Under the pieces are notes generated by a model, which was not told the DNA's origin, ran no database searches, and was given only the letters and a program-made list of their open reading frames with translations. Shown here in pieces: positions 4,301 through 58,720 of a DNA stretch of 64,000 nucleotides (position 1 is its first letter; each line of letters begins with the position of its first letter). The DNA is from Escherichia phage PSD2001. The stretch lies in sequence record OK254198.1; one strand, written 5' to 3'. The translations under genes were made by a program, and so were the position numbers.

Positions 4301-4610
4301 CCGTTGTAAGTCAGAAATTAAGCTTATTGATAACGCCCAAGAGAAATCCAAACTCTTAGGTGGTTACACTTATTTGCTTAAAAACTCCGTTACTGATGAA
4401 GTTAAACCCTCTGCTGGTTTGATTGCACAGGAAGTTCAAGAAGTATTGCCTGAACTTGTGACTGAAGATAAAGAGACTGGCTTACTTCGTTTGAATTATA
4501 ACGGTATTATCGGTTTAAATACTGCTACTATCAACGAGCATACTGACGAAATCAAGGAATTGAAATCTGAAATTGCTGAATTGAAAGCATTAATTAAATC
4601 ATTATTATAA
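1341..4610 (+). CDS. 37: Long tail fibre distal subunit gp37 with a C-terminal intramolecular chaperone-like domain
   Basis: 1089 aa; N-terminus [13 protein letters not shown]...[12 protein letters not shown] matches T-even gp37; C-terminal about 110 aa ([15 protein letters not shown]...[25 protein letters not shown]) looks like an S74-type self-cleaving chaperone with a coiled-coil tail. Confidence 0.88.
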
Positions 4611-5462: not shown

Positions 5463-6116
5463 ATGGAACCAAAAGTAGGAATATCAATACCCGACCTACT
5501 TTTTGGACTTCTTGATAGAATTTTTAAAGATAATGCGACCGGGAAAGTTGTTTTTTCCAGGGTACTAGTTATTGTTCTATTATTTTTAATGGCGGTAATC
5601 TGGTATAAAGGTGATGCACTTTTAGATGCGTACAGGGATGCTTCATATGCCTCATACACTGAAATGATAAGGCAAGACCAGGATAACAGATTTAAAATTG
5701 CAGCTATCGAGCAAATCCAGATAGTCCACTCGTCAAGTGGGGCAGACTTTACAGCAATATATTCTTTTAGACCAACTAACCTTAACTACTTTGTGGATAT
5801 GGTGGGATACGAGGGGATATTGCCTGATACAGTCGACGAAAAAAATTTAGGTGGGTTTCCAATAGATAAAACTTCGGCGGAATATTTGGCGGGGGTTAAT
5901 GGTAATTATTTTGAATCCAGTACGGAATCTGTATTCTTACCAACAAAGAAAAAAAGCAGCTTCACATATATGTTCAGCTGCCCATTCTTTAATTTGGAAA
6001 ACGTTTATGCAGGTACAGTCTCACTGTACTGGTATAAGCAAAAACCTAACCTTGGTTTTGATAGGCTTTCTGCTATGTGTGGACAAGCAGGTCGTACGCT
6101 CGGGCGTACACGTTAG
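5463..6116 (+). CDS. t: Holin (T4 gene t family)
   Basis: 217 aa; FGLLDRIFKDNATGKV, one N-terminal transmembrane segment and a large C-terminal domain (FRPTNLNYFVD, MFSCPFFNLENVYAGT), as in T4 holin T. Confidence 0.85.
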   Translation: MEPKVGISIPDLLFGLLDRIFKDNATGKVVFSRVLVIVLLFLMAVIWYKGDALLDAYRDASYASYTEMIRQDQDNRFKIAAIEQIQIVHSSSGADFTAIYSFRPTNLNYFVDMVGYEGILPDTVDEKNLGGFPIDKTSAEYLAGVNGNYFESSTESVFLPTKKKSSFTYMFSCPFFNLENVYAGTVSLYWYKQKPNLGFDRLSAMCGQAGRTLGRTR

Positions 6117-6388
6117 AATCCGGAGGTATACATCATAAGATAACGGTGTATATCTTCGAATCCTTCGTTAAATTGTTCAATGATTTGTTCAATTTCATCT
6201 TCAGATAAACTTTTAAACAATTTGTTAAACGATACATTGTTTAACTCATTCCCATTCTCATTTCTCAATCCCAACTCATTCAAAAACGCGATAAACACAT
6301 CACGCTTCATCGTAATATCTTCCCGGTCGGTTTTAATCAAAATTGAAGTTACAGTAACAATTTCAGAAACGATTTCAAATTTAGTCAT
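6113..6388 (-). CDS. asiA: Anti-sigma70 factor AsiA
   Basis: 91 aa; IVTVTSILIK...FIAFLNE...FNEGFE...RYLMMYT matches T4 AsiA (90 aa); located right after t as in T4. Confidence 0.85.
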   Translation of the reverse strand: MTKFEIVSEIVTVTSILIKTDREDITMKRDVFIAFLNELGLRNENGNELNNVSFNKLFKSLSEDEIEQIIEQFNEGFEDIHRYLMMYTSGF

Positions 6389-6437
6389 TTTAATTTACTC
6401 AAGTATTCAATAAGACATTCAATTATTCAGTAAGGAT

Positions 6438-6467
6438 ATTGTACTATTATTCCTCTGGGTTGTACAC
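6438..6467 (-). promoter_or_regulatory. Candidate T4-type early promoter upstream of asiA
   Basis: Minus strand reads GTGTAC, 18-nt spacer, TACAAT; matches the GTTTAC/TATAAT early consensus loosely. Confidence 0.35.
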
Positions 6468-6611
6468 ATGATTTTCCATCTGTACAACATATTCCTGATA
6501 CATCTGTTCAACCGGTTCCTGGAACTTAAAATCAGTCCCAAGGAATTCATCAAAGCAAGTCTGTTCGCGTGTGCGTTGCCCAGTGATGGTGTTCTCTAAG
6601 TTATGACTCAT
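6447..6611 (-). CDS. Small hypothetical protein (54 aa)
   Basis: ATG with GGAG Shine-Dalgarno directly after the stop of the upstream gene; below the ORF-track size cut-off. Confidence 0.3.
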   Translation of the reverse strand: MSHNLENTITGQRTREQTCFDEFLGTDFKFQEPVEQMYQEYVVQMENHVYNPEE

Positions 6612-6621
6612 AGTTTACTCC

Positions 6622-6903
6622 TCAATCAATATAATCTTCTAAACCAAAATCATCAATTTCTTCTTGAATTTCTCTTAATACTTGTTCTTCATCTAGACCA
6701 GGACCAAAAATCACTTTAGCGTAGCCAGGTCGTTCACTAGAGAATCGAATTGTATATTCCGGTTGAATATAGCCAAAGCTGCTATCCAAATCACAAAGAA
6801 TTTCTGCATAGATTTCGGCTGGAACTGAAGCATGGATTTTAAAAAGCTCATCAATAAGAATAACCAATTCAGTTGCTTGATATGTATGGAGTTTAGTAAT
6901 CAT
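6622..6903 (-). CDS. Acidic small protein, possibly Arn-like anti-restriction protein
   Basis: 93 aa, strongly acidic C-terminus (EEQVLREIQEEIDDFGLEDYID); position between asiA and motA matches T4 arn (92 aa). Not verified. Confidence 0.4.
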   Translation of the reverse strand: MITKLHTYQATELVILIDELFKIHASVPAEIYAEILCDLDSSFGYIQPEYTIRFSSERPGYAKVIFGPGLDEEQVLREIQEEIDDFGLEDYID

Positions 6904-6992
6904 AGCCTTTACCCTTGTGCTTCTGCTTGCGTTTGGACTGCATTTCAGTTTTCTTCTTATCCTTATGGACAGACGCCTTATTGAAATCGTGT

Positions 6993-7271
6993 TTAGCTAC
7001 CAGGTTGTTCATGTAATTTCCTTAATTGGTATTCAAGAGAGCTAATAATTTCTTTATTAGTCGCAATATACATATCACGCAGGAAGGGCTTCAGGCCTTC
7101 CCTAACTCTATATGTGTTATCACTAATATCCTTTATATATTCATGGTCTAAAGCATCCCAACCTGGCTGGTTAACATAAGTTCCCCAGTTGTCTTCCATC
7201 ATAGTATTCAGATGTTTGATATGATTAATATGGTTTTCAATCGCATCAATTTGGAGTTGTTTAAGGTTCAT
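6993..7271 (-). CDS. Hypothetical protein (92 aa)
   Basis: Minus-strand ORF in the asiA-motA interval; stop abuts the next gene. Confidence 0.5.
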   Translation of the reverse strand: MNLKQLQIDAIENHINHIKHLNTMMEDNWGTYVNQPGWDALDHEYIKDISDNTYRVREGLKPFLRDMYIATNKEIISSLEYQLRKLHEQPGS

Positions 7272-7732
7272 TAGTAAAGGTCCTCTGAATAAAGTTCTTT
7301 CTCACTACCGCCACGTTCAATACGCACCTGATTTGCATAAGTCGCAATAATCATTGCTTCTTCGCGGGTCCAGTAATTGCTGTATTGGTCAATAAACCCT
7401 TGGTTATCACCGCAAACATGGTCTGACACAAGTTTATCACTTACCTGGTCAAGCACTTCTGCCATATCTTTTGAATAATGTCTGGCACCAGGAATAACCA
7501 GAGTCCCACCATCTTTTAACTTAAAGCGGTTGGCTGCGCACACAATCCTGCGCTGATATTTTTCATTGTTGTTCCAATGAGCAATCTGCCAACAGATTTC
7601 AGGAACTTCCTTTAGAATATCTTCTTCTGTGCATTTATAACCATGTGCTTTAAATTTTTCAGCAAGACTTTCTGGAGTCTCACGAGATAAAGGAACATTC
7701 AGCATTTTTAAACGATTAATAAATGGGTTCAT
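7271..7732 (-). CDS. Hypothetical protein (153 aa)
   Basis: Minus-strand ORF coupled by overlap to neighbours; no recognisable motif. Confidence 0.55.
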
Positions 7733-8061
7733 TTAAACCATCCTTTAACACGTTGCCACAGACTTTTCTGTTGAGCTTTATTAACACCAATTGAGCGAAT
7801 AACTGGTTGTGATTCCAGGTATTCTTTATAGTCAGCTTTATAGACTTCATATGCTGCTGGAACAAAGGCACCAATCGCCGCCATGAAGTTCTTGCGAGCA
7901 CCAAATGGAGCTACTGCATCATCCTGGCGATGGATAAGATACTGACCAGCTTTGACCTTGACAATAGTCCCAAGGTAAGCGCCATGATACCAAACATCCC
8001 AACCCTCTTGAGTAGGTTCTACGCAAGCACGCAATTCATTAACAATATTCAGCTTATTCAT
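7729..8061 (-). CDS. Hypothetical protein (110 aa), motA.1 position
   Basis: Minus-strand ORF immediately downstream of motA. Confidence 0.5.
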
Positions 8062-8068
8062 AATTTCC

Positions 8069-8677
8069 TCACTTTAAGATGTTAATAACATGTTGAATGT
8101 TTTCAGTTGACATATGATTGTCAATGTAGGTATTCAATCCACCTACTTTAACGCTAAATCCCACGTCTGTAAACTGTTTTACTATCTTTTGTTCAGTATT
8201 ATACGCATGCACGCGAATCTGACCATCACGACGTACATCAATCTGTTTTAATGTCTTGACACGCTTGAACTTCACAATCAGATTGCTGCGGTCTTCTGAA
8301 ATGCTCTTAAAGTCAATACCAATAGACAACAATTGCTCTTTGATATATTCTGCAGTCGCTTCCATTTCATCAGTCACACCGCGTTTTGTTCTTGTCTTCT
8401 TCACTTCCAGAAGGTCAGGATTATTTTCATTCGCCCAAAGTTCAGCTGCATCCAGAATAAGGTCAACGCCTTTTTCTGTAACCATCAAACCATCACCAGA
8501 AGCTTCAACATAGTTGTTATTCAACAATGTCTGCACACTATCAATTGATGTGTTCTGCTGGTCTAAAACAACCTCTGGACTCACGAAGTTGTTTTTGTAT
8601 ACAAACACCAGAGCATTGACATCAGTCTCATGCAGCGCGTTCTGGGAGCATTTAACGATATAATTTAACTTGTTCAC
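8069..8677 (-). CDS. motA: Middle-transcription activator MotA
   Basis: 202 aa; position between asiA and gene 52; SGDGL motif and overall size match T4 MotA (211 aa). Confidence 0.65.
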   Translation of the reverse strand: MNKLNYIVKCSQNALHETDVNALVFVYKNNFVSPEVVLDQQNTSIDSVQTLLNNNYVEASGDGLMVTEKGVDLILDAAELWANENNPDLLEVKKTRTKRGVTDEMEATAEYIKEQLLSIGIDFKSISEDRSNLIVKFKRVKTLKQIDVRRDGQIRVHAYNTEQKIVKQFTDVGFSVKVGGLNTYIDNHMSTENIQHVINILK

Positions 8678-8679
8678 AA

Positions 8680-8907
8680 TTATCCCTTAATAGATTTCAT
8701 GTAATTTGATGCATATGATTGTACCACAGTACGTTTCATATGGGAAGTAGAAACAATCACATCAATTGCTTGTTTACGTTCTTCTTTAGAGTTTGCCAGT
8801 TTGAACATGTCAAAGTAGTAGTAGCAAGCTTCTTTGTTAGATTTGAATTTGATGTTGATGTATTCTTGACCTTCATTCTGTTGTGCAGTAAACATTTTAT
8901 TCTCCAA
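8680..8907 (-). CDS. Hypothetical protein (75 aa)
   Basis: First ORF downstream of promoter cassette 8945-8974. Confidence 0.45.
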   Translation of the reverse strand: MENKMFTAQQNEGQEYINIKFKSNKEACYYYFDMFKLANSKEERKQAIDVIVSTSHMKRTVVQSYASNYMKSIKG

Positions 8908-8923
8908 AGTTTTTGTGATTCAG

Positions 8924-8976
8924 TGTGTAACTCAGTATGGAATCATTATGTCCTAAGACAAGGGGGTTGTACACTA
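8924..8976 (-). repeat. 53-bp early promoter cassette, copy A (identical to 35247-35299)
   Basis: TGTGTAACTCAGTATGGAATCATTATGTCCTAAGACAAGGGGGTTGTACACTA is present identically at both sites. Confidence 0.8.
8945..8974 (-). promoter_or_regulatory. T4-type early promoter
   Basis: Minus strand: GTGTAC, 18 nt, CATAAT. Confidence 0.45.
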
Positions 8977-8983
8977 CTTTTTT

Positions 8984-9011
8984 TAAAATAAAAAAGGACC
9001 CCGAAGGGTCC
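8984..9011 (-). terminator. Rho-independent terminator downstream of gene 52
   Basis: GGACCC-cgaa-GGGTCC hairpin followed by a T-run on the minus strand. Confidence 0.6.
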
Positions 9012-9105
9012 TAGTCTTTATCTATCTTATTACCAATAAACATACCAACAATCACACCTGCGATTGCCGCAAAAATACAAAGCAATGCAAACTCAACTCC
9101 AAAAC

Positions 9106-10485
9106 TCATAGAGCCTCCAAGTCATTAAGGTATTCAGTTTTAACATCAGTTGTCTTCCAGTATTCATGCTCAGCTTTCTTAGCCTTTGCTTCGTCTGCAA
9201 GCTTCTTGGCTTCATCAGAGGTCATATGGTAGATGTTCATCGCCACTAACTTCTCTGCATAATCGCCATATATTTCACTTGCCTGGAGTTCCTCAATCAA
9301 CTTCTTACGAGGTTTCCCCTGGATAACAACCTTACCGTCAATCACTTCTTTAATAAAGAAGACTTTTGCCCGGGCCAGTTTAAATGCTGCTTCAGTTTCT
9401 TTAATCTTACTGTCAATTCGCACTTGAACATAAGTCTTACGGACATCAACGAAATCGCGAATCAGGTCAAGCGTGTTGGTGTATTCGGCCAGCTTACCTT
9501 TGTGATTAAGCACCGTTAAGTTCTGGGAGAGCTTCTCAATCAGACCGAAGTCTTTCATGATTTTCTCATGATTCTCTTCTTCAGTACCATCCAACTTGTA
9601 TTCTTTGCGGAATTTAATCTTAAACCCAAAACCATGCTCGCCGCAGTTATCTTTCCAGGTGATAAAACCTTTCTCTTCCAGCGGGTCCAGGATTTTACTT
9701 GTATACTTTTCCAGGTTCCATTGGACCGGGATTTCAGTAATTTCCATTTGGGTCCTGGAGGTCATTTTGTATGTGCCATGAAGTTCATACTTACCAGGCT
9801 CTTCCAGCTCAACAACTTCACCGCGGAATTCTGGATATTTTACTTTCGGAGCAACCGGCTCACGACCTTCCACGATAGCTTTAACAGCTTCCTTGACGTC
9901 CTGGAACGAATGAGGAAGTATATCAGTAGCGAAGCCAACAGCAATCCCAGAAGTGGCGTTAAGTAATACAGTAGGAATAACAGGAAGATAAAAAGCAGGA
10001 GGCTTATGTTCTTCATCAGGATGGACCGGAGCATATTCTGTATCCTTAAACAAGTTATAAAAGTTCTTTGAAACCCTTGCGAATACATAACGAGCTGATG
10101 ATGCTTCTGGCACCATTCTGGAACCAAAGTTGCCTTGCCCATCAAACATGGGGTATTCATTTTTATATGTTGCGACCAGACCAGAAGTTGCTTCTTCCGC
10201 CGATGCTTCGCCATGGTGATAACCATAATCAGCTACGCCGCCGGCGATAGATGCAACTTTATGGAATTTATTCTTATCACCACGAGCCAGGTCTAATGCT
10301 CTCGCCATAACAAATCTGTGAACTGGTTTAAAACCATCAATCATGTTTGGGATGGCACGACCTTCCACAGTGTAGATAGCATATGATAATGCTTCCACAT
10401 CAATAATGTCTTTTAGACTGCGTGGGTTAAGGGTCCCCATGGAATCACTGAACTGTTTGGACATCATACTTAAAACGTCAGACAT
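9106..10485 (-). CDS. 52: DNA topoisomerase II medium subunit gp52
   Basis: 459 aa; AIPNMIDGFKPVHRFV...AGGVADYGYHHGE...ARYVFARVS matches T4 gp52 (GyrA-like cleavage domain). Confidence 0.9.
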   Translation of the reverse strand: MSDVLSMMSKQFSDSMGTLNPRSLKDIIDVEALSYAIYTVEGRAIPNMIDGFKPVHRFVMARALDLARGDKNKFHKVASIAGGVADYGYHHGEASAEEATSGLVATYKNEYPMFDGQGNFGSRMVPEASSARYVFARVSKNFYNLFKDTEYAPVHPDEEHKPPAFYLPVIPTVLLNATSGIAVGFATDILPHSFQDVKEAVKAIVEGREPVAPKVKYPEFRGEVVELEEPGKYELHGTYKMTSRTQMEITEIPVQWNLEKYTSKILDPLEEKGFITWKDNCGEHGFGFKIKFRKEYKLDGTEEENHEKIMKDFGLIEKLSQNLTVLNHKGKLAEYTNTLDLIRDFVDVRKTYVQVRIDSKIKETEAAFKLARAKVFFIKEVIDGKVVIQGKPRKKLIEELQASEIYGDYAEKLVAMNIYHMTSDEAKKLADEAKAKKAEHEYWKTTDVKTEYLNDLEAL

Positions 10486-10493
10486 ATATCACC

Positions 10494-10634
10494 TTACCAG
10501 ATTAACGAATGTACTGCCATTATAGCATCAGAAATAAAAAGCACAACCTGCACTAATGCAAACATAACTCCATAATACAACGCCACCAATAAGGTAGCAA
10601 GGGCTAACGAGTAGCCCAGGATTTTCTTAATCAT
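10494..10634 (-). CDS. Small hydrophobic membrane peptide (46 aa)
   Basis: [25 protein letters not shown]...; ATG overlaps the upstream stop (ATGA). Confidence 0.3.
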   Translation of the reverse strand: MIKKILGYSLALATLLVALYYGVMFALVQVVLFISDAIMAVHSLIW

Positions 10635-10816
10635 TTGTTAACCGCTGATTCCAGAAATTTGACTAAGGCATCCAGTACAAACCATGTGCAAATAAATCCT
10701 GCAAAAAGAGTACTTGGGACCCATACACCTGTAGCAAAAAGAGTCACAGCAACGATAACAGCTACGAGCCAGATAAAAGTAAAAACTGTTTGCATATTTT
10801 CCTCAAGGGCGTCCAA
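10631..10816 (-). CDS. Small membrane protein (61 aa), possibly ac-like
   Basis: Two predicted transmembrane helices; position between 52 and ndd matches the T4 ac/stp region. Confidence 0.4.
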
Positions 10817-54182: not shown

Positions 54183-54418
54183 TCTTTCACCTTCATCATT
54201 TTTGCAATGGTACTATGGACAGCCTGGATTCGTTTGTCGAACTCAGACCCTTCAAGGTCAGGATTGGTGCTTAACCAACCGATGATAACAAACAGCAAAC
54301 CAAACGGAATAGCCAGAATAAGCAGACAAACGATGAACAAAACAAGCGTTATGTTTGCCAGAATATCTGCTGCAGCATTTCTAAATTTATCCATATTTAC
54401 CCTTAATTGATTAACCAA
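54179..54418 (-). CDS. Small membrane protein (79 aa)
   Basis: One strongly hydrophobic helix (ITLVLFIVCLLILAIPFGLLFVIIGWL). Confidence 0.45.
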   Translation of the reverse strand: MVNQLRVNMDKFRNAAADILANITLVLFIVCLLILAIPFGLLFVIIGWLSTNPDLEGSEFDKRIQAVHSTIAKMMKVKE

Positions 54419-54508
54419 GCATTGATAAGCACTAAACTATACTGCGAATAAAATTCTGGACCAAAATGAAAAATCATATCATTTATAGTATCCATAATAT
54501 AATTAAAT

Positions 54509-54979
54509 TTAATCATGTTTCCACACCCCATCGGTATTTGACCAAAGTCGCTGATTATCTGACCCTCGCCACAGTTTTTTGGTCGGAAGATTTTTCTCAT
54601 ACTTCCCATCAATAATAACATCAACATATTTAAGCATTTCTAGTTGTTTAATATCTTCAAACTTATATCCTGTCCACAGCCAAATGCTTTTATTGGGATA
54701 AAGATTTTTAATAGTTTGAACCACAGAGTGAATAACATCTCGGTTATCAGGATAGAGAGGGTCTCCTCCAGTTATAGTTAATCCTTCTATATAATCATTA
54801 TTCAAACATTCAATTAATTGTTCTAGTGTTTCACCAGTGAATGGAACACCATTTCTAGCATTCCATGTTGATTTATTATAACACCCTTCGCATTTATGCA
54901 AACAACCTGTAACGAAAAGAACGACCCTACAACCAGGGCCATTCACAAAATCGCAAGGATAAAATCTATCATAATTCAT
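54509..54979 (-). CDS. nrdG: Anaerobic ribonucleotide reductase activating protein NrdG (radical SAM)
   Basis: 156 aa (same as T4 NrdG); Cys cluster CLHKCEGC. Confidence 0.9.
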   Translation of the reverse strand: MNYDRFYPCDFVNGPGCRVVLFVTGCLHKCEGCYNKSTWNARNGVPFTGETLEQLIECLNNDYIEGLTITGGDPLYPDNRDVIHSVVQTIKNLYPNKSIWLWTGYKFEDIKQLEMLKYVDVIIDGKYEKNLPTKKLWRGSDNQRLWSNTDGVWKHD

Positions 54980-56793
54980 TGGTGTTTAACCCTATGCATG
55001 ATTTCTTTATTTTTGCCGAGATTAAATCCACGTTCGTTCGGATTCCCCAAATAGCCGCATGTTCTTCTTATTGTGTTCATCTTTTTAGGGTCAGTTTCTC
55101 CACAAACAGAACAAACAAATCCGTTCTCGGTTGGAGTCATTTCATGGGTACTTCCACATGTAAAACATTTATCTACTGGCATATTAACACCAAAATAATC
55201 TAAATGTTGTGCAGCATAATCCCACACAGCCTCAAGACCTTTTAGGTTATTTTTCATATCAGGAAGTTCAACATAAGAAATGTGACCACCTGTTGCAATG
55301 AAATGATATGGGGCTTCGCGAGAAATCTTTTCAAACGGAGTAATATTTTCTTCTACTGAAACGTGGAAACTGTTAGTGTACCAGCCTTTATCAGTAACAT
55401 CTTTTACACTTCCATATTTTTCGGTATCGAGTTTACAGAAGCGATAACACAGGTTTTCAGCAGGAGTAGAATACAAACTAAAAGCAAATCCGGTTCTTTC
55501 AGTCCACTGCTTAAGACGAGCATTCATTTTAGTTAAAATTTCTTGCCCAATATCACGACCGACAAGAATATCCAATTCGTGAATACCAATGTATCCTAGG
55601 GACACTGAACTTCTACCGTTTTTAAATAACTCAATTATATCATCATCAGGTTTAAGACGAACCCCGAATGCACCTTCTTGATAAAGAATAGGAGCAACAG
55701 TCGCTTTAACTCCTTTTAAGGAACTAATTCTACACATCAAAGCTTCAAAACATAAATCCATTCGTTCATTGAACAATTCGGCAAATTTCTGTTCATTGAA
55801 CTGTGTTCCAATATAAGAATCTAACGCAATACGAGGAAGATTCAGTGTTACAACACCAAGATTATTACGTCCATCAAGAATTTCATTACCAGTCGAATCT
55901 TTCCATACGCCCAAGAAACTACGGCAACCCATTGGAGAAACAGGAATAGATGAACCTGTGATAGCTTTGTTATTCTTAGCTGAAATGATATCAGGATACA
56001 TTCTTTTGCTTGCACACTCTAAAGCAAGCTGCTTAATATCATAGTTCGGGTCGTCTTTATAAAGATTAACACCTTCTTCAACGAACATAACAAGTTTAGG
56101 GAAAATAGGAGTTATCCCATCACGACCAAGACCTTTAATACGATTTTTCAGAATTGCTTTCTGAATCATTCGTTCAGTCCAATCAGTTCCCGTACCAAAT
56201 GTAATGGTTACAAAAGGCGTTTGTCCATTTGAACTAAAGAGAGTATTTACTTCATATTCATAAGCTTGGAATGCATCGTATACGTCTTTTTCTGTTTTAG
56301 ATTGGGCATAATTCAATGCATCAGTGATTTGCCATTTTTCTGCGTCTTCAATATGTTTTGCGTATGTACGTTTAACATAAGGAGAAAATACTTTGTCTAC
56401 ATTAGCAAAAGTCGTTCCGCCATATTGGTGAGAAGCAACTTGTGCAGTAATTTGTGCCATAATTGCAGTAGCAACACCAATTGATTTAGGAGTTTCAATC
56501 TGTGCATTACCGAGTTTAAATCCGTTCTCAAGCATTCCTTTTAAATCTACTAAACAGCAATTAGTAAATGGAAGAGCAGGGGAATAATCAATATCATGGA
56601 AATGAATAATTCCGCTTTCATGTGCTTTCATAATAAAAGACGCGACCATATTTTTGGCAATGTGTTTAGATACAATACCAGCCATAAGGTCACGTTGAGT
56701 TGGAAAAACACGAGAATCTTTATTAGCATTCTCGTTTAAAAGGTCTTTATTAGTTTTATGAATCAATCCTTCAATTTCGTTTTCAATTGTCAT
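54976..56793 (-). CDS. nrdD: Anaerobic ribonucleoside-triphosphate reductase NrdD, intron-less
   Basis: 605 aa (same as T4 NrdD); C-terminal glycyl-radical motif RRTCGYLG and Cys-rich zinc site CFTCGSTHEM...CSVCG; single uninterrupted frame. Confidence 0.9.
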   Translation of the reverse strand: MTIENEIEGLIHKTNKDLLNENANKDSRVFPTQRDLMAGIVSKHIAKNMVASFIMKAHESGIIHFHDIDYSPALPFTNCCLVDLKGMLENGFKLGNAQIETPKSIGVATAIMAQITAQVASHQYGGTTFANVDKVFSPYVKRTYAKHIEDAEKWQITDALNYAQSKTEKDVYDAFQAYEYEVNTLFSSNGQTPFVTITFGTGTDWTERMIQKAILKNRIKGLGRDGITPIFPKLVMFVEEGVNLYKDDPNYDIKQLALECASKRMYPDIISAKNNKAITGSSIPVSPMGCRSFLGVWKDSTGNEILDGRNNLGVVTLNLPRIALDSYIGTQFNEQKFAELFNERMDLCFEALMCRISSLKGVKATVAPILYQEGAFGVRLKPDDDIIELFKNGRSSVSLGYIGIHELDILVGRDIGQEILTKMNARLKQWTERTGFAFSLYSTPAENLCYRFCKLDTEKYGSVKDVTDKGWYTNSFHVSVEENITPFEKISREAPYHFIATGGHISYVELPDMKNNLKGLEAVWDYAAQHLDYFGVNMPVDKCFTCGSTHEMTPTENGFVCSVCGETDPKKMNTIRRTCGYLGNPNERGFNLGKNKEIMHRVKHQ

Positions 56794-56930
56794 TTTAAAC
56801 TCTTTCTAAGCTGCTTCTTAAATGAAGCCATTAATTGTGTTTTGGTGTCAGATTCATTATAAGTCATACCATTCAAAAGCATTTCCCGAATCATTTCTTC
56901 TTTCCCCAGGCGACGGATAATATCATTCAT
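56790..56930 (-). pseudogene. 49: Remnant of endonuclease VII (gene 49) C-terminal domain
   Basis: 46-codon frame MNDIIRRLGKEEMIREMLLNGMTYNESDTKTQLMASFKKQLRKSLK matches my recollection of the T4 gp49 C-terminus; no credible Shine-Dalgarno; upstream continuation has an in-frame TAA and a frameshift; no N-terminal catalytic domain in any frame. Confidence 0.4.
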
Positions 56931-56988
56931 AGATTCGACTAAAGCATAAAATGTTTAGCCGTAAAAATTAATCATTTGAGCGATTTCC

Positions 56989-58065
56989 TCAGTTGTTTTT
57001 TAAATACTGTATATAGCTTTCTAGCCATACTGTTAAGTTATCTCTTTCAGTTTGAGATAACGGATTAACCATATCTTTGAAAAAGTTTAATTCCATTTGT
57101 GAAACTTTTTCATGTCGAACTGTTTTGACTAAATTCATGGTTGCAAGTTTTGCTTTATGAGATTTTTTGTCTTCCATAACTAACTTTTTAATTTTTCCAT
57201 CTTTTAATATTTTTGCACAACCACCGCGCCCGACACCAAAATGTTGTTCAACATCAGCGTTCGATATAAATTTTACACTATCATCAACCAAAGCAAATTT
57301 GTATCTTTGTCGTGCAATGGTCGGGGGTAAGCCCCAACGTTCCTGGATTAGGTCCAAATCACCCTGTAACAGTCTGGTTAAATGACTTGCAGAGATTTTG
57401 TTTTCTTGTGCGAACTTGGTTTGGTTAACGACTTCAACTTCCGTATTAGTCTGGTAATCCCAAATTTTATACGAAGAGCAATTGGTAATTATTCCGTGTT
57501 TTTCGGAACGAGACCGCCCAAACTGCCAACCCTTTGTCAAATAATTTTCAACTTCTTCAGGTTTAACATATTTGGTTTTCTGGCCCATTTTATACATCAC
57601 GGGCCAATTAACATGTTCATTGCCTTTATCAAATTCAATCCATCGGGCAATATCGTCTTGAGTCAAATCATCAAAGCAGTTGGGGTTGAAATGTCCACCA
57701 ATCTGTTTATTGAGCCACATTGGGTCACGCAAAACATCATTAGCTAGTTGCATTTCCATTTCAGCCATAAGAGTTTTACCCCAAGTTGGATACCAACCCA
57801 CGATAATCATTTCTTTTGGCTTTATACCATTTTCTAGAATTGAGTTTAACTCATTTGATGATGATGTGTAGGTTTTCCAATCAGATTCTTCAAAACCTTT
57901 TTTGGGACCGCGCTTGAATGTACATGGAGCTGCTTTGATTCGTTTCCAAATCTTTTTAGCGCCAACATATTTGTGACCATCTTCAAATGTAATTACATAT
58001 ACAAATCCCAAATATTGATTGATGTCAGCTTCTTCAAATACTGACCAATGACCATAATCAGACAT
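56989..58065 (-). CDS. GIY-YIG homing-endonuclease-like protein (358 aa) in the gene 49 slot
   Basis: N-terminus GFVYVITFEDGHKYVGAKKIWKRIK resembles the GIY-(10)-YIG core and following basic residues of I-TevI/Seg enzymes; last about 18 aa (DNLTVWLESYIQYLKNN) resemble a mid-region of T4 gp49. Confidence 0.55.
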   Translation of the reverse strand: MSDYGHWSVFEEADINQYLGFVYVITFEDGHKYVGAKKIWKRIKAAPCTFKRGPKKGFEESDWKTYTSSSNELNSILENGIKPKEMIIVGWYPTWGKTLMAEMEMQLANDVLRDPMWLNKQIGGHFNPNCFDDLTQDDIARWIEFDKGNEHVNWPVMYKMGQKTKYVKPEEVENYLTKGWQFGRSRSEKHGIITNCSSYKIWDYQTNTEVEVVNQTKFAQENKISASHLTRLLQGDLDLIQERWGLPPTIARQRYKFALVDDSVKFISNADVEQHFGVGRGGCAKILKDGKIKKLVMEDKKSHKAKLATMNLVKTVRHEKVSQMELNFFKDMVNPLSQTERDNLTVWLESYIQYLKNN

Positions 58066-58103
58066 ACCAAATACCTTTAATGTTAATTAGATATAGGTAT
58101 TTA

Positions 58104-58301
58104 TTATTTTTCAAATGTGCTATAGAACGAACGATGCAACCGTTTAAATTGACGAATCATCTTTTTGGTAGGACGAGTATACAATCCCACACAGGTGGCC
58201 ATAAACTGGTCAGTAGGACTTCCTTTGATAAGGAGTTTCCAGACCTTACTGCCATCCAACTTTTCGGTATAAATCAGTTCAGTTTTCATAGTAAAACCCA
58301 T
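58104..58301 (-). CDS. Hypothetical protein (65 aa)
   Basis: Minus-strand ORF. Confidence 0.35.
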   Translation of the reverse strand: MGFTMKTELIYTEKLDGSKVWKLLIKGSPTDQFMATCVGLYTRPTKKMIRQFKRLHRSFYSTFEK

Positions 58302-58554
58302 ATTCTATATCGATTAAATCGTTGTTTGAAGGTTCATTATACTCTATTTCGGAATCGTTGTAAACCGGTTCCTCTGGCTCGGTAGTTTTCCACCGAGCGA
58401 CATACCATGGCTTAACGGTCACTCCAATAGCTTGATACTTCAAAATCAGGCTCGCCGTTTTCCCAGTACCAAGGACCAACCGGATGCCAATCGCCATGCT
58501 TATCTTCTTCATATTCTTCAGATTCAAGCCCAACGTATTGCCATTGGACTTCAT
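58279..58554 (-). CDS. Hypothetical acidic protein; start uncertain
   Basis: C-terminal half (TTEPEEPVYNDSEIEYNEPSNNDLIDIEYGFYYEN) looks coding; N-terminal half overlaps ORF 58412-58720 in another frame. Confidence 0.25.
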   Translation of the reverse strand: MKSNGNTLGLNLKNMKKISMAIGIRLVLGTGKTASLILKYQAIGVTVKPWYVARWKTTEPEEPVYNDSEIEYNEPSNNDLIDIEYGFYYEN

Positions 58555-58720
58555 AAGCAGTGCCGCCGATTACAACAGTGTTCTCACCATACGGGTGAGC
58601 CACAGCAAAGTCAATACCTTCTGCTTTAGCCAACCAAACCATATATTCGTATAGTTTATATTCCAGGTCATCTTCGGTACCATCACCTAGAAAAATGGTT
58701 TGTTCGTTTAATTCAATCAT
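58412..58720 (-). CDS. Hypothetical acidic protein (102 aa)
   Basis: Minus-strand ORF, Trp/Tyr/Glu-rich. Confidence 0.45.
   Translation of the reverse strand: MIELNEQTIFLGDGTEDDLEYKLYEYMVWLAKAEGIDFAVAHPYGENTVVIGGTAYEVQWQYVGLESEEYEEDKHGDWHPVGPWYWENGEPDFEVSSYWSDR

Follow-up and report, generated by a model that had tools for sequence, protein, structure and literature searches.

A GIY-YIG nuclease gene in the gene 49 position of Escherichia phage PSD2001, a candidate substitute for endonuclease VII

Results

A GIY-YIG gene and a gp49 stump lie upstream of nrdD

Endonuclease VII (EndoVII, gp49) is the textbook phage junction resolvase. In the stretch of DNA analysed here (the 64-kb window), which comes from a Gaprivervirus-like phage, the gene 49 slot upstream of nrdD holds an intact 358-aa GIY-YIG gene and a 46-aa ORF (Table 1), with the coordinates and sequences that an earlier sequence-only reading had assigned to them. 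The adjacent nrdD shares 95.8% nucleotide identity with P896 nrdD (dN/dS 0.036). On the other side, the DUF7279 gene is almost identical in the window, TH15, P896 and Bp7, and a homologous crossover could have occurred here.

Table 1. Features of the locus, in window coordinates
Feature	Position	Strand	Basis
Native orfX copy, 37 aa (MIKFNY...FGPEFYSQY...), ATGA-coupled to nrdG	54403..54516	-	sequence and alignment
nrdG	54509..54979	-	ORF; Pfam families in identical contigs
nrdD (anaerobic ribonucleotide reductase), P896-type	54976..56793	-	ORF
46-aa chimeric ORF: MNDIIRR from orfX plus gp49 118–157 (dimerisation helices)	56790..56930	-	
Right recombination junction, 11–13 nt microhomology (CGYCGCMTGGG)	56905..56917	-	homology end points
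orfX 5′ fragment, donor-derived, TAA-interrupted (MINFYG*TFYALVESMNDIIRR)	56918..56975	-	
Out-of-frame relic of an older gp49 3′ end (FKKQLRKSLK + TGA)	56972..57004	-	second tblastn match
GIY-YIG nuclease gene, 358 aa, gp49-replacing family	56989..58065	-	ORF, Pfam, PHROG 7363
C-terminal helix WLESYIQYLKNN, homologous to gp49 87–98	56992..57027	-	tblastn and family conservation
Middle region, residues 193–310, repeated beta-hairpin/helix modules	57136..57489	-	
GIY-YIG catalytic domain, residues 9–122	57700..58041	-	Pfam PF19835 SegE_GIY-YIG
Late-promoter-like TAATAAATA, then hairpin (ATACCT...AGGTAT) over the Shine-Dalgarno of the GIY-YIG gene	58071..58106	-	
Left boundary of the incoming cassette	58086..58096	-	blastn end point and four-way alignment
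DUF7279 gene, conserved left flank	58104..58301	-	Pfam PF23945, E=2.5e-16

The 358-aa protein matches PHROG 7363 over its full length (E=1.4e-172). The nuclease signature noticed at its N-terminus is genuine: PF19835 matches with E=1.6e-32 and 112.7 bits (cut-off 25) over the ~100-aa catalytic domain, which places the protein in the GIY-YIG superfamily as a SegE-like member with the GIY-YIG fold. Residues Y23, Y33, G35, K37, K38, E102 and N119 are invariant across 29 sequences, and by analogy they may supply the catalytic tyrosine pair, basic residue, glutamate and asparagine. The middle region resembles the DNA-binding region of homing endonucleases (I-HmuI-like); a search of PDB sequences with the family profile gave no useful match. 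The C-terminal helix corresponds to the last helix of the EndoVII catalytic domain. Taken alone it is identical to gp49 at 7/12 positions (tblastn), and its pattern, WLExYIxYLK, is conserved throughout the family.

The His-Me-finger domain with the Cys4 zinc site (PF02945) that defines EndoVII is missing from the 358-aa ORF, and Pfam gave no match to it at E<=1 in either ORF. The dimerisation domain, PF09124, is not on the same polypeptide, as it is in EndoVII; it sits on the separate 46-aa ORF. The GIY-YIG gene does have EndoVII's position upstream of nrdD and its late-gene leader. The leader hairpin, as predicted from sequence, sequesters the Shine-Dalgarno of the gene. The same promoter and hairpin layout precedes intact gp49 in P896 and DK-13, and this leader is found ahead of nearly all family genes examined, with stems that differ but compensate; the exception is the P0024 hairpin, which leaves the Shine-Dalgarno free. 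The arrangement has been described both for late genes of T4 and for homing endonucleases (PMC2988022). Since it is also typical of ordinary T4 homing endonucleases, the leader does not discriminate between the readings weighed below.

The gp49 remnant is truncated and undecayed

The 46-aa frame matches PF09124 with E=4.2e-17 and is identical at 39/40 positions to residues 118–157 of the intact 157-aa gp49 of phage P896 (E=3e-20), so the resemblance to the gp49 C-terminal helices is significant. The remnant had been described as decayed. It is truncated yet undecayed: 3/125 nt differ from P896, compared with 76/1818 nt in the nearby functional nrdD. Its stop codon overlaps the nrdD start (ATGA), and the native translation-initiation region of nrdD is thereby kept. 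No obvious Shine-Dalgarno sequence precedes its ATG. As the sequence-only reading had held, no gp49 catalytic N-terminus is encoded: gp49 residues 1–115 were unmatched anywhere in the 64-kb window by tblastn, and tblastn, phmmer and hmmsearch profiles found no EndoVII catalytic domain there. Weak gp49-like tblastn matches at 20.4–20.8 kb of the window were rejected as chance; they fall in a lipoprotein-like ORF of 86 aa and in a frame next to it.

Two further relics separate the ORFs. FKKQLRKSLK now overlaps the stop codon of the GIY-YIG gene and carries the Shine-Dalgarno and ATGA start of a small downstream ORF. Its codons differ from the native gp49 tail at 9/33 nt, and the same relic is found in TH15, phiR1-RT, TG1 and P0003; S16-type genes terminate in frame (YLKKGLK*). 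The second is the orfX fragment, homologous to 33–42-aa ORFs that follow the family gene at the TH15, Bp7, Eco005, phiR1-RT and P0002/P0003/P0009 loci; the 41-aa ORF of this type in TH15 has no Pfam match. Because a native orfX is present after nrdG, the fragment at 56918–56975 is a partial second copy brought by the cassette. We had considered MNDIIRR and its surroundings as a relic either of the NrdD C-terminus or of gp49 110–117 and rejected both; they are the 5′ part of orfX. The local 46-aa remnant is a fresh recombination by-product and not a decayed piece of the 358-aa protein. The ORF itself most likely has no function and is a recent leftover, kept for the nrdD start region that lies within it.

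We weighed whether the two ORFs form a split or recoded EndoVII, joined by frameshifting or readthrough or acting as two subunits, and judged this improbable. Long relatives with exactly this domain order do exist, and P0024 resembles such a secondary fusion with its two parts in frame. The 46-aa ORF, which starts with an ATG of its own, is undecayed and identical in at least 8 contigs, and the 358-aa ORF ends in a slippery T_TTA_AAA. However, there are stops in every frame between the ORFs, and the 46-aa frame can be reached only by a shift and passage of a TAA, both of which are real, as first noticed. A −1 slip adds just KQLRKSLK before a stop, no Shine-Dalgarno precedes the 46-aa ATG, TH15, LQ5 and phiR1-RT lack the peptide entirely, and a small unrelated ORF supplied its first 7 codons. 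Recent origin and overlap with the nrdD start region account for the absence of decay. A programmed −1 frameshift at T_TTA_AAA (...YLKKQLRKSLK) need not be invoked: the slippery site is missing from P0002, P0009 and Bp7, and the DNA conserved there is a stop codon with the Shine-Dalgarno and ATGA of the next ORF.

That an assembly or sequencing artefact conceals an intact gene 49 has a negligible chance of being right. Homopolymer runs do lie near the end of the 358-aa ORF, but the same 1.6-kb region recurs at 98.9–100% identity in at least 9 independent contigs derived from SRA data of different sequencing runs. The ORF end is common to TH15 and P0001, and an exchange of 363 nt for 1,168 nt is beyond indel-scale error.

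A recombined cassette has taken the place of most of gene 49

Homology breaks sharply at both ends of the gene. At the right junction, similarity to TH15 and Bp7 stops at 56905 and similarity to P896 begins at 56917 (blastn); the microhomology joins donor orfX to codons 116–119 of the recipient gene 49. At the left boundary, the sequence upstream is common to P896 and the 5′ UTR from this point is of the Bp7 (Dhakavirus) type; the left junction of TH15 differs and lies at the ATG. The foreign insert thus spans 1,168 nt in place of 363 nt of gene 49. Among 795 related phage records, TH15 alone covered the GIY-YIG gene with its flank, and 7 Dhaka-type records matched the 5′ part of the gene at ~85% identity.

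By these end points, the cassette, comprising the family gene and the start of the small downstream ORF, came from a TH15/Dhakavirus-type donor without 49-nrdD-nrdG into a P896-type genome. The left crossover was homologous, in the DUF7279/promoter region, and the right junction illegitimate, at the microhomology inside gene 49. This event deleted gp49 codons 1–115 and kept the last 42 codons, the nrdD translation-initiation region, nrdD and nrdG.

The family is conserved, selected and exclusive of gp49

Full-length homologues of the 358-aa protein (55–96% identity) occur in many T4-like phages, and this small family was found only there. Its members fill the gene 49 slot in Gelderland-, Teguna-, Dhaka- and RB16-like phages, Ac42 and some KVP40-like phages (phiR1-RT, STP4-a, RB16 and Ac42 are such loci), and their stop codon often overlaps the nrdD start, as in STP4-a. 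In phage 65 the family member is found between nrdA and gene 35 and runs on the opposite strand. The family evolves under purifying selection (dN/dS 0.10–0.16), and the gene is intact across the genera whose listed members all carry it. A broken copy in Bp7 (271 + 35 aa) was set aside as evidence of dispensability, its two frame changes lying near each other at A-runs in an old record; LQ5, E33, FB and ABTNLS3 have intact genes.

gp49 was absent from three complete family-bearing genomes (TH15, the S16-like UTK0003, and LQ5), no EndoVII catalytic domain was detectable in those of UTK0003 and LQ5, and no gp49 N-terminus was found in the flanks examined of family loci. In D484 the family gene sits exactly at the gene 49 position of KVP40, and none of the listed family-bearing vibriophages is among 33 close matches to KVP40 gp49. 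By this distribution, the family gene and gp49 are mutually exclusive alleles at one locus among vibriophages. TH15, the closest relative with the cassette, has at its mobA locus a further, separate ORF of 235 aa in which Pfam recognises a genuine Endonuclease_7 domain, and this EndoVII-fold nuclease could carry out debranching there.

The sequence-only reading had proposed that a homing endonuclease invaded and destroyed gene 49. The destruction stands, in that the cassette deleted codons 1–115. The gene also shows presence/absence polymorphism and lies at an exchange boundary, as expected of homing endonucleases, on the basis of the sharp breaks described above and of D484 compared with KVP40 and K566. 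A homing endonuclease gene should, however, be a dispensable passenger that leaves host function in place; here the gp49 catalytic domain is lost and the gene is under selection. Judged by its conservation, the GIY-YIG gene belongs to a long-conserved selected family and is not a sporadic selfish insert.

Long relatives point to a chimeric ancestry

In the long relatives P0023, P0024 and P0026, PF09124 occurs in frame together with PF19835 and still passes the Pfam threshold. Residues 359–430 of P0026 match gp49 86–157 (BLASTP, E=2e-15), and a long form matches residues 84–157 of T4 EndoVII in the PDB with E=1.4e-14. Aligned with short forms, the long relatives run colinearly from the C-terminal helix into gp49 99–157. 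Because they carry gp49 84–157 in frame, the WLESYIQYLK tail is truly gp49-derived, and its noted resemblance to the middle of gp49 is homology. The alternative proposal, a chimera that had borrowed gp49 sequence, was right about the C-terminus. The tail is conserved across the whole family; it arrived with the cassette and not from the local gene 49.

By these long members and the exclusivity with gp49, the family began as a GIY-YIG::EndoVII chimera. A Seg-type GIY-YIG module took the place of the EndoVII His-Me-finger catalytic domain, and short forms such as the 358-aa protein later lost the dimerisation domain by internal deletion, leaving the out-of-frame FKKQLRKSLK* relic.

Discussion

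A probable substitute for endonuclease VII

Our preferred explanation combines a chimeric family, a recombined cassette and a GIY-YIG protein that substitutes for gp49; as a whole we consider it probable, with considerable room for doubt. Position, conservation and exclusivity lead us to infer that the debranching job of gp49 is done by the GIY-YIG protein. As the family sits in the gene 49 position of many phages that lack gp49, it is probably more than a parasite, namely a substitute enzyme. The sequence-only reading had left open whether the resolvase was elsewhere or replaced; with 64 kb in view, a conserved family in the slot of gp49-less phages favours replacement. The protein would be made late in infection and cut branched replication and recombination intermediates before and during packaging. 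It may also cleave rival genomes bearing gene 49, which would explain the repeated spread of the family in situ.

The slot, the exclusivity and the dimerisation domain of the long forms indirectly support the protein as a candidate Holliday-junction or branched-DNA enzyme. Against this, its middle region resembles the sequence-reading DNA-binding domain of a homing endonuclease and no known junction-binding fold; the short form is without the dimerisation domain that EndoVII uses for paired cuts; and the Endonuclease_7-domain ORF of TH15 could do the job at least in that phage. We found no experiment on a substitute function of the family in the literature searched.

The main competing reading is that a selfish homing endonuclease destroyed gene 49, and that branches are resolved by another enzyme (a protein with an Endonuclease_7 domain encoded elsewhere, the nuclease of the terminase, or RuvC of the host) or gp49 is dispensable in these backgrounds. 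The Seg-type architecture of a GIY-YIG domain with an I-HmuI-like DNA-binding region speaks for it, as do the gene's variable presence in close relatives and its mosaic boundaries, the 235-aa ORF of TH15 and the label 'homing endonuclease' given to the family by both PHROG and RefSeq. We nevertheless regard it as rather unlikely. UTK0003 and LQ5 are complete without a detectable EndoVII catalytic domain, the invade-fix-decay cycle that selfish endonuclease genes go through does not fit an intact gene under strong purifying selection across genera, and the dimerisation domain kept in long forms would be useless to a monomeric homing enzyme. Moreover, gp49 is essential in T4 (PMC2993671).

A bolder form of the substitution reading, which we put forward tentatively and think somewhat less likely to be true than false, makes the family homing endonuclease and junction-resolving, packaging nuclease of the phage at once. 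The mobile gene could then home into and erase an essential gene 49 because the replacement activity comes along, and the window would record a recent take-over with the gp49 stump still in place.

Whole T4-like genera (S16-like, Dhaka-, Teguna- and RB16-like) and some vibriophages lack gp49 and have in that position a gene that databases call a homing endonuclease. If substitution is correct, the family would be a new non-orthologous phage resolvase built on the GIY-YIG domain, a bacterial-virus counterpart of SLX1, and a clear case of catalytic-domain swapping with the dimerisation scaffold retained. As a model, it would illustrate how an essential gene can arise from a selfish nuclease, or how such a nuclease can spread by taking an essential gene's place, and annotations would need correction in more than 80 records of phage genomes (the collection searched contains 84).

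Comparison with known systems

With T4 endonuclease VII (PDB 1EN7, 1E7L, 2QNC) the family shares the slot upstream of nrdD, with a stop/start overlap in several lineages, the leader with late promoter and ribosome-binding-site hairpin, and the helix equivalent to gp49 87–98; long forms keep gp49 84–157 with the dimerisation domain. It differs in having a GIY-YIG catalytic domain instead of a zinc-bound His-Me finger, with gp49 1–83 missing, and in its length (358 versus 157 aa), to which a DNA-binding-like middle region is added. The short form is without the dimerisation domain, and junction cleavage by the family is putative.

The modular layout of nuclease and DNA-binding regions, the late promoter and hairpin, and inter-phage movement by recombination that leaves mosaic boundaries all recall the free-standing Seg proteins of T4 and the intron-encoded I-TevI. 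The family protein is ~130–150 aa longer than T4 Seg proteins. Unlike Seg proteins and I-TevI, the family is conserved at full length across subfamilies (dN/dS about 0.1), replaces an essential gene rather than sitting between genes, and carries EndoVII-derived sequence. SegH reportedly replaces mobC, as Sandegren et al. are said to have described in 2005. We rejected SegH as the identity of the GIY-YIG gene: mobC is located between nrdG and nrdD (PMC2988022, Table 1), and in the window these two genes overlap and no gene separates them.

RB16 and Aeromonas phage 65 were described as circumventing gp49 by replaced or newly acquired 'putative alternative nucleases' (PMC2993671), namely RB16ORF270c and 65ORF061w (Petrov et al. 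2006, 2010; PMC2993671). Both phages carry family members, that of RB16 in the gene 49 slot, and we infer that these ORFs are the present GIY-YIG family despite the differing ORF numbering. RB16p270 was rejected as the nuclease in question; its prediction as a membrane protein means that the earlier ORF number and today's locus tag do not correspond. Protein domains are not analysed in the review, which also contains no mention of an EndoVII-derived C-terminus and no experiment.

SLX1, ANKLE1 and At-HIGLE establish that Holliday junctions, like branched DNA of other kinds, can be cut by a GIY-YIG domain (PMC9071465, PMC10287932), a mechanistic precedent for the function proposed here. These proteins are eukaryotic and have other partner domains, and sequence kinship with the family is not detectable beyond the GIY-YIG fold. 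Finally, the homing endonuclease F-CphI of cyanophage S-PM2 works with the EndoVII catalytic motif (PMC6083498), and by analogy the 235-aa ORF of TH15 may be of this kind. F-CphI is the mirror image of the family described here: there an EndoVII catalytic domain went into a homing enzyme, whereas here a homing-type catalytic domain has been joined to an EndoVII C-terminus.

The gene-49 slot of the window

The 358-aa ORF in the gene-49 slot matches Pfam SegE_GIY-YIG over residues 9–122 (E = 1.6e-32), and the downstream 46-aa ORF matches PF09124, the EndoVII dimerisation domain (Pfam, E = 4.2e-17). The phages closest to the window are Gapriverviruses, and one relative, P896, has an intact 157-aa gp49 in the corresponding slot, with its stop overlapping the nrdD start. 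A sequence-only reading had described a 46-aa frame resembling the gp49 C-terminus, separated from the 358-aa ORF by a frameshift and an in-frame TAA. Both points were correct, and the frame is identical to P896 gp49 residues 118–157 at 39 of 40 positions. Its statement that the gp49 catalytic N-terminus is encoded nowhere also held: neither P896 gp49 residues 1–115 nor EndoVII catalytic-domain profiles found a match in the 64-kb window. It had called the remnant decayed, but the remnant and P896 disagree at only 3 of 125 nt, against 76 of 1818 nt for nrdD; by this measure it is undecayed.

Public data from different sequencing runs contain the 1.6-kb region in at least nine contigs, at 98.9–100% identity. 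This excludes an assembly artefact and marks the arrangement as genuine. It is unlikely that the 46-aa peptide serves as part of a split or recoded enzyme; this rival and the artefact are both weaker than that of a purely selfish endonuclease.

Features of the gene-49 slot, its surroundings and the TH15 mobA locus
Feature	Record	Coordinates	Strand	Remark
Native orfX copy	window	54403-54516	minus	directly after nrdG, ATGA-coupled
nrdG	window	54509-54979	minus	ORF
nrdD	window	54976-56793	minus	ORF
46-aa ORF	window	56790-56930	minus	PF09124 match
Truncated orfX copy	window	56918-56975	minus	
358-aa ORF	window	56989-58065	minus	SegE_GIY-YIG match
DUF7279 gene	window	58104-58301	minus	
TH15 235-aa ORF	MT446392	about 52-800	plus	mobA locus, just upstream of gene 39

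At 58279–58720 (minus strand), the window is without two genes that TH15, P896 and a same-lineage contig (L055) possess: pin (the Lon inhibitor) and a neighbouring 89-aa gene. A 47-aa GTG-start ORF, part of a 91-aa ORF (58279–58554), overlaps the end of a 102-aa gene there.

Recombinational origin of the locus

Homology to P896 ends at 58086, 17 nt upstream of the ATG of P896 gp49, and restarts at 56917, in gp49 codon 116; between these points the window has 1,168 nt in place of 363 nt. Homology to TH15 (92%) and Bp7 (74%) runs from 58289 to 56905. The two stretches of homology therefore overlap in an 11–13 nt microhomology, CGYCGCMTGGG. The interval from the 358-aa ORF to the right junction is not gene 49 but the 5′ part of orfX, a small ORF of 33–42 aa with the motif FGxE[FY]PSQ[YW], which is ATGA-coupled to the GIY-YIG gene in TH15, Bp7, vB_EcoM_005, phiR1-RT and three metagenomic loci. 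TH15 has neither nrdD nor nrdG in its whole genome, Bp7 and phiR1-RT have neither at the GIY-YIG locus, and in all three orfX lies immediately 3′ of the GIY-YIG gene. The homology breaks, the orfX copies and the nrdD/nrdG pattern therefore identify the window as a recombinant of two genome types.

A donor of the TH15/Dhakavirus type, with the order DUF7279 - GIY-YIG - orfX, supplied the cassette to a P896-type recipient with the order DUF7279 - 49 - nrdD - nrdG - orfX. The left exchange fell within the conserved DUF7279/promoter region, and the right junction was illegitimate, within gene 49. The 46-aa ORF is consequently chimeric, with MNDIIRR from orfX and the remainder from gp49 118–157. 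The left junction of TH15 differs (at the ATG), so more than one exchange has occurred at the gene-49 locus.

Outside the window, orfX was placed at 4451–4576 in L001 and at about 4088–4190 in L009; several records leave it unannotated.

A family conserved in sequence and position

Full-length relatives of the 358-aa protein were found by tblastn in 84 phage records, at 55–96% identity over about 356 aa. They include those of Tegunavirus (phiR1-RT, TG1), Gelderlandvirus (S16, STP4-a, STML-198 and others), Dhakavirus-type phages (Bp7, LQ5, E33), RB16, Klebsiella and Cronobacter phages, Acinetobacter phage Ac42 and Aeromonas phages; vibriophage versions are shorter. The full-length family makes up only about ten clusters among 1.84 billion representative proteins. 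Databases already list it as 'homing endonuclease', the label of PHROG 7363, which matches the 358-aa protein end to end. As with gene 49, the stop of the family gene overlaps the nrdD start in STP4-a, RB16 and one metagenomic T4-like contig, and in phiR1-RT and Ac42 the gene lies at the corresponding point behind the nrdC/pin block. The dN/dS of the window gene was 0.10 against TH15, 0.135 against phiR1-RT and 0.11 against STP4-a.

The annotation of the Bp7 gene (L003, NC_019500, 3900–4970) divides it into products of 271 aa and 35 aa; its two frame changes fall at A-runs close together, which suggests errors in sequencing homopolymers and not a pseudogene.

Intact gp49 genes and almost all family genes examined have a leader with a late-promoter-like ATAAATA and a hairpin in which the Shine-Dalgarno sequence is buried. 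The stems vary among lineages, and the hairpin of one family gene (P0024) leaves the Shine-Dalgarno sequence free. This layout points to late expression. T4 late genes and T4 homing endonucleases both typically have it (PMC2988022), so the leader cannot discriminate between a substitute for gp49 and a homing enzyme. Upstream of the DUF7279 gene is a strong sigma-70-type promoter-like site (TTTACA-17-TATAAT, 11/12; 58336–58364, minus strand), from which early transcripts would read through; the RBS hairpin of the GIY-YIG gene can form in them.

Mutual exclusion with gp49

Three complete family-bearing genomes, TH15 (171,591 bp), the S16-like UTK0003 (160,221 bp) and LQ5 (171,908 bp), gave no gp49 hit with tblastn or with phmmer --max on six-frame ORFs, and a profile of three diverse EndoVII catalytic domains was unmatched in UTK0003 and LQ5. 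The gp49 N-terminus was in no flank of any family locus. In vibriophage KVP40, gene 49 lies elsewhere, flanked by gene 31 and rnlB on the opposite strand, and vibriophage D484 has a 326-aa family member at exactly that place and orientation, with flank homology stopping at the gene ends. KVP40 gp49 has 33 close matches, all of them listed, and none is from the listed family-bearing phages (D484, D490, K571 and others); the sister isolates K566 and K567 carry gp49 at the same map position. In the genomes compared, the family and gp49 are mutually exclusive.

RB16 and Aeromonas phage 65 are said to circumvent the need for gp49 via 'putative alternative nucleases' (Petrov et al., PMC2993671). Each has a family member; because the numbering differs, we can only infer that these are the ORFs meant.

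T4-like Cronobacter phages with genomes of about 182 kb have either the family gene, as in leE (KX443552 / NC_048646, at about 155.5 kb), or gp49, as in S13 (KC954775, at about 152 kb); OM638103 (LPCS28) stands beside S13 in this contrast. They may be a third clade in which the two are alternative alleles.

Chimeric origin of the family

Three long members among database proteins (P0023, 427 aa; P0024, 499 aa; P0026, 432 aa) and one in a viral contig (L031) end in an in-frame PF09124 domain, and long forms also occupy the gene-49 slot. Residues 359–430 of P0026 align with gp49 86–157 (E = 2e-15), and residues 357–430 with residues 84–157 of the solved T4 EndoVII structure (E = 1.4e-14). In the family alignment, the conserved C-terminal WLExYIxYLK of the short forms falls exactly at the start of this gp49-like segment. 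The likeness of WLESYIQYLKNN to gp49, which the sequence-only reading had noticed, is therefore true homology to gp49 87–98, brought by the cassette. Directly after YLK, one base out of frame, the window, TH15, phiR1-RT, TG1 and P0003 encode FKKQLRKSLK followed by TGA. These are the last ten gp49 codons, with codon usage unlike the native tail; S16-type genes end in frame with YLKKGLK and a stop. The alignments mark the family as an old GIY-YIG::EndoVII chimera. On the simplest reading, the long form would be ancestral, an internal deletion would then have taken out the equivalent of gp49 99–147, and the last codons would have been kept because the translation-initiation region of the next gene lies there.

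At the end of the 358-aa ORF is a canonical −1 slippery heptamer, T_TTA_AAA (56992–57010, minus strand), where a slip would give YLKKQLRKSLK and a stop, the gp49 C-terminal tail. The heptamer is conserved in TH15, phiR1-RT and TG1, absent from P0002, P0009 and Bp7, and probably a by-product of the start region of the next ORF. In contig L021 (logan SRR14300940_297, 6001–7500 and 7497–10732), P0024 has two tandem dimerisation-like segments, a diverged one and then a T-even-like one, and resembles the secondary fusion of the window, but in frame. An I-HmuI/NUMOD-type endonuclease gene interrupts nrdD in L021, and in L023 an HNH_3/NUMOD4 gene lies within nrdD.

A nested C-terminal gp49 product has been described in T4. 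PHROG 24351 holds 90-aa 'endonuclease VII' proteins comprising gp49 residues 68–157 only, and some Gaprivervirus records (MW233709 UPEC01, MW250787 UPEC07) annotate gene 49 as just 'endonuc-dimeris domain-containing protein'. Such annotations may reflect start-site differences or a nested product.

Substitute or selfish endonuclease

In the AF2 model of the 358-aa protein (mean pLDDT 78), a poorly defined linker joins the GIY-YIG domain to a confidently modelled region of beta-hairpin/helix modules (residues 193–310), and two helices form the C-terminus, so the N-terminal two thirds have a homing-endonuclease-like ancestry. This HEG-like architecture fits the main rival, that the gene is purely selfish and its phages manage without gp49, as does an additional EndoVII-fold ORF in TH15. 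That 235-aa ORF, of which the end of the record (about 171306) holds a second copy, has a genuine C-terminal Endonuclease_7 domain (Pfam, E = 4.5e-18); it may be an alternative resolvase or a homing endonuclease of the F-CphI kind. UTK0003, LQ5 and the window lack it, the window having nothing at the mobA locus. A selfish gene fits poorly, however, with long-term purifying selection, with whole genera in which each listed member has the gene intact, and with the dimerisation domain retained in the long forms. We infer that the 358-aa protein would perform the late debranching of gp49 with a GIY-YIG active site. It may also retain homing activity towards genomes that bear gene 49; the repeated in-situ replacements would then be explained.

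Replacement of gp49 by another nuclease in some T4 relatives was an idea put forward in 2006 and 2010, with neither analysis nor experiment (PMC2993671), and we found nothing further on such nucleases in the literature searched. Apparently new are the EndoVII-derived C-terminus with its long-form intermediates, the allele-like exclusivity of family and gp49 in two different genome architectures, and the fresh take-over in the window, where the gp49 stump is still intact. For junction cleavage by a GIY-YIG enzyme, the eukaryotic SLX1 and ANKLE1 (PMC9071465, PMC10287932) provide a precedent.
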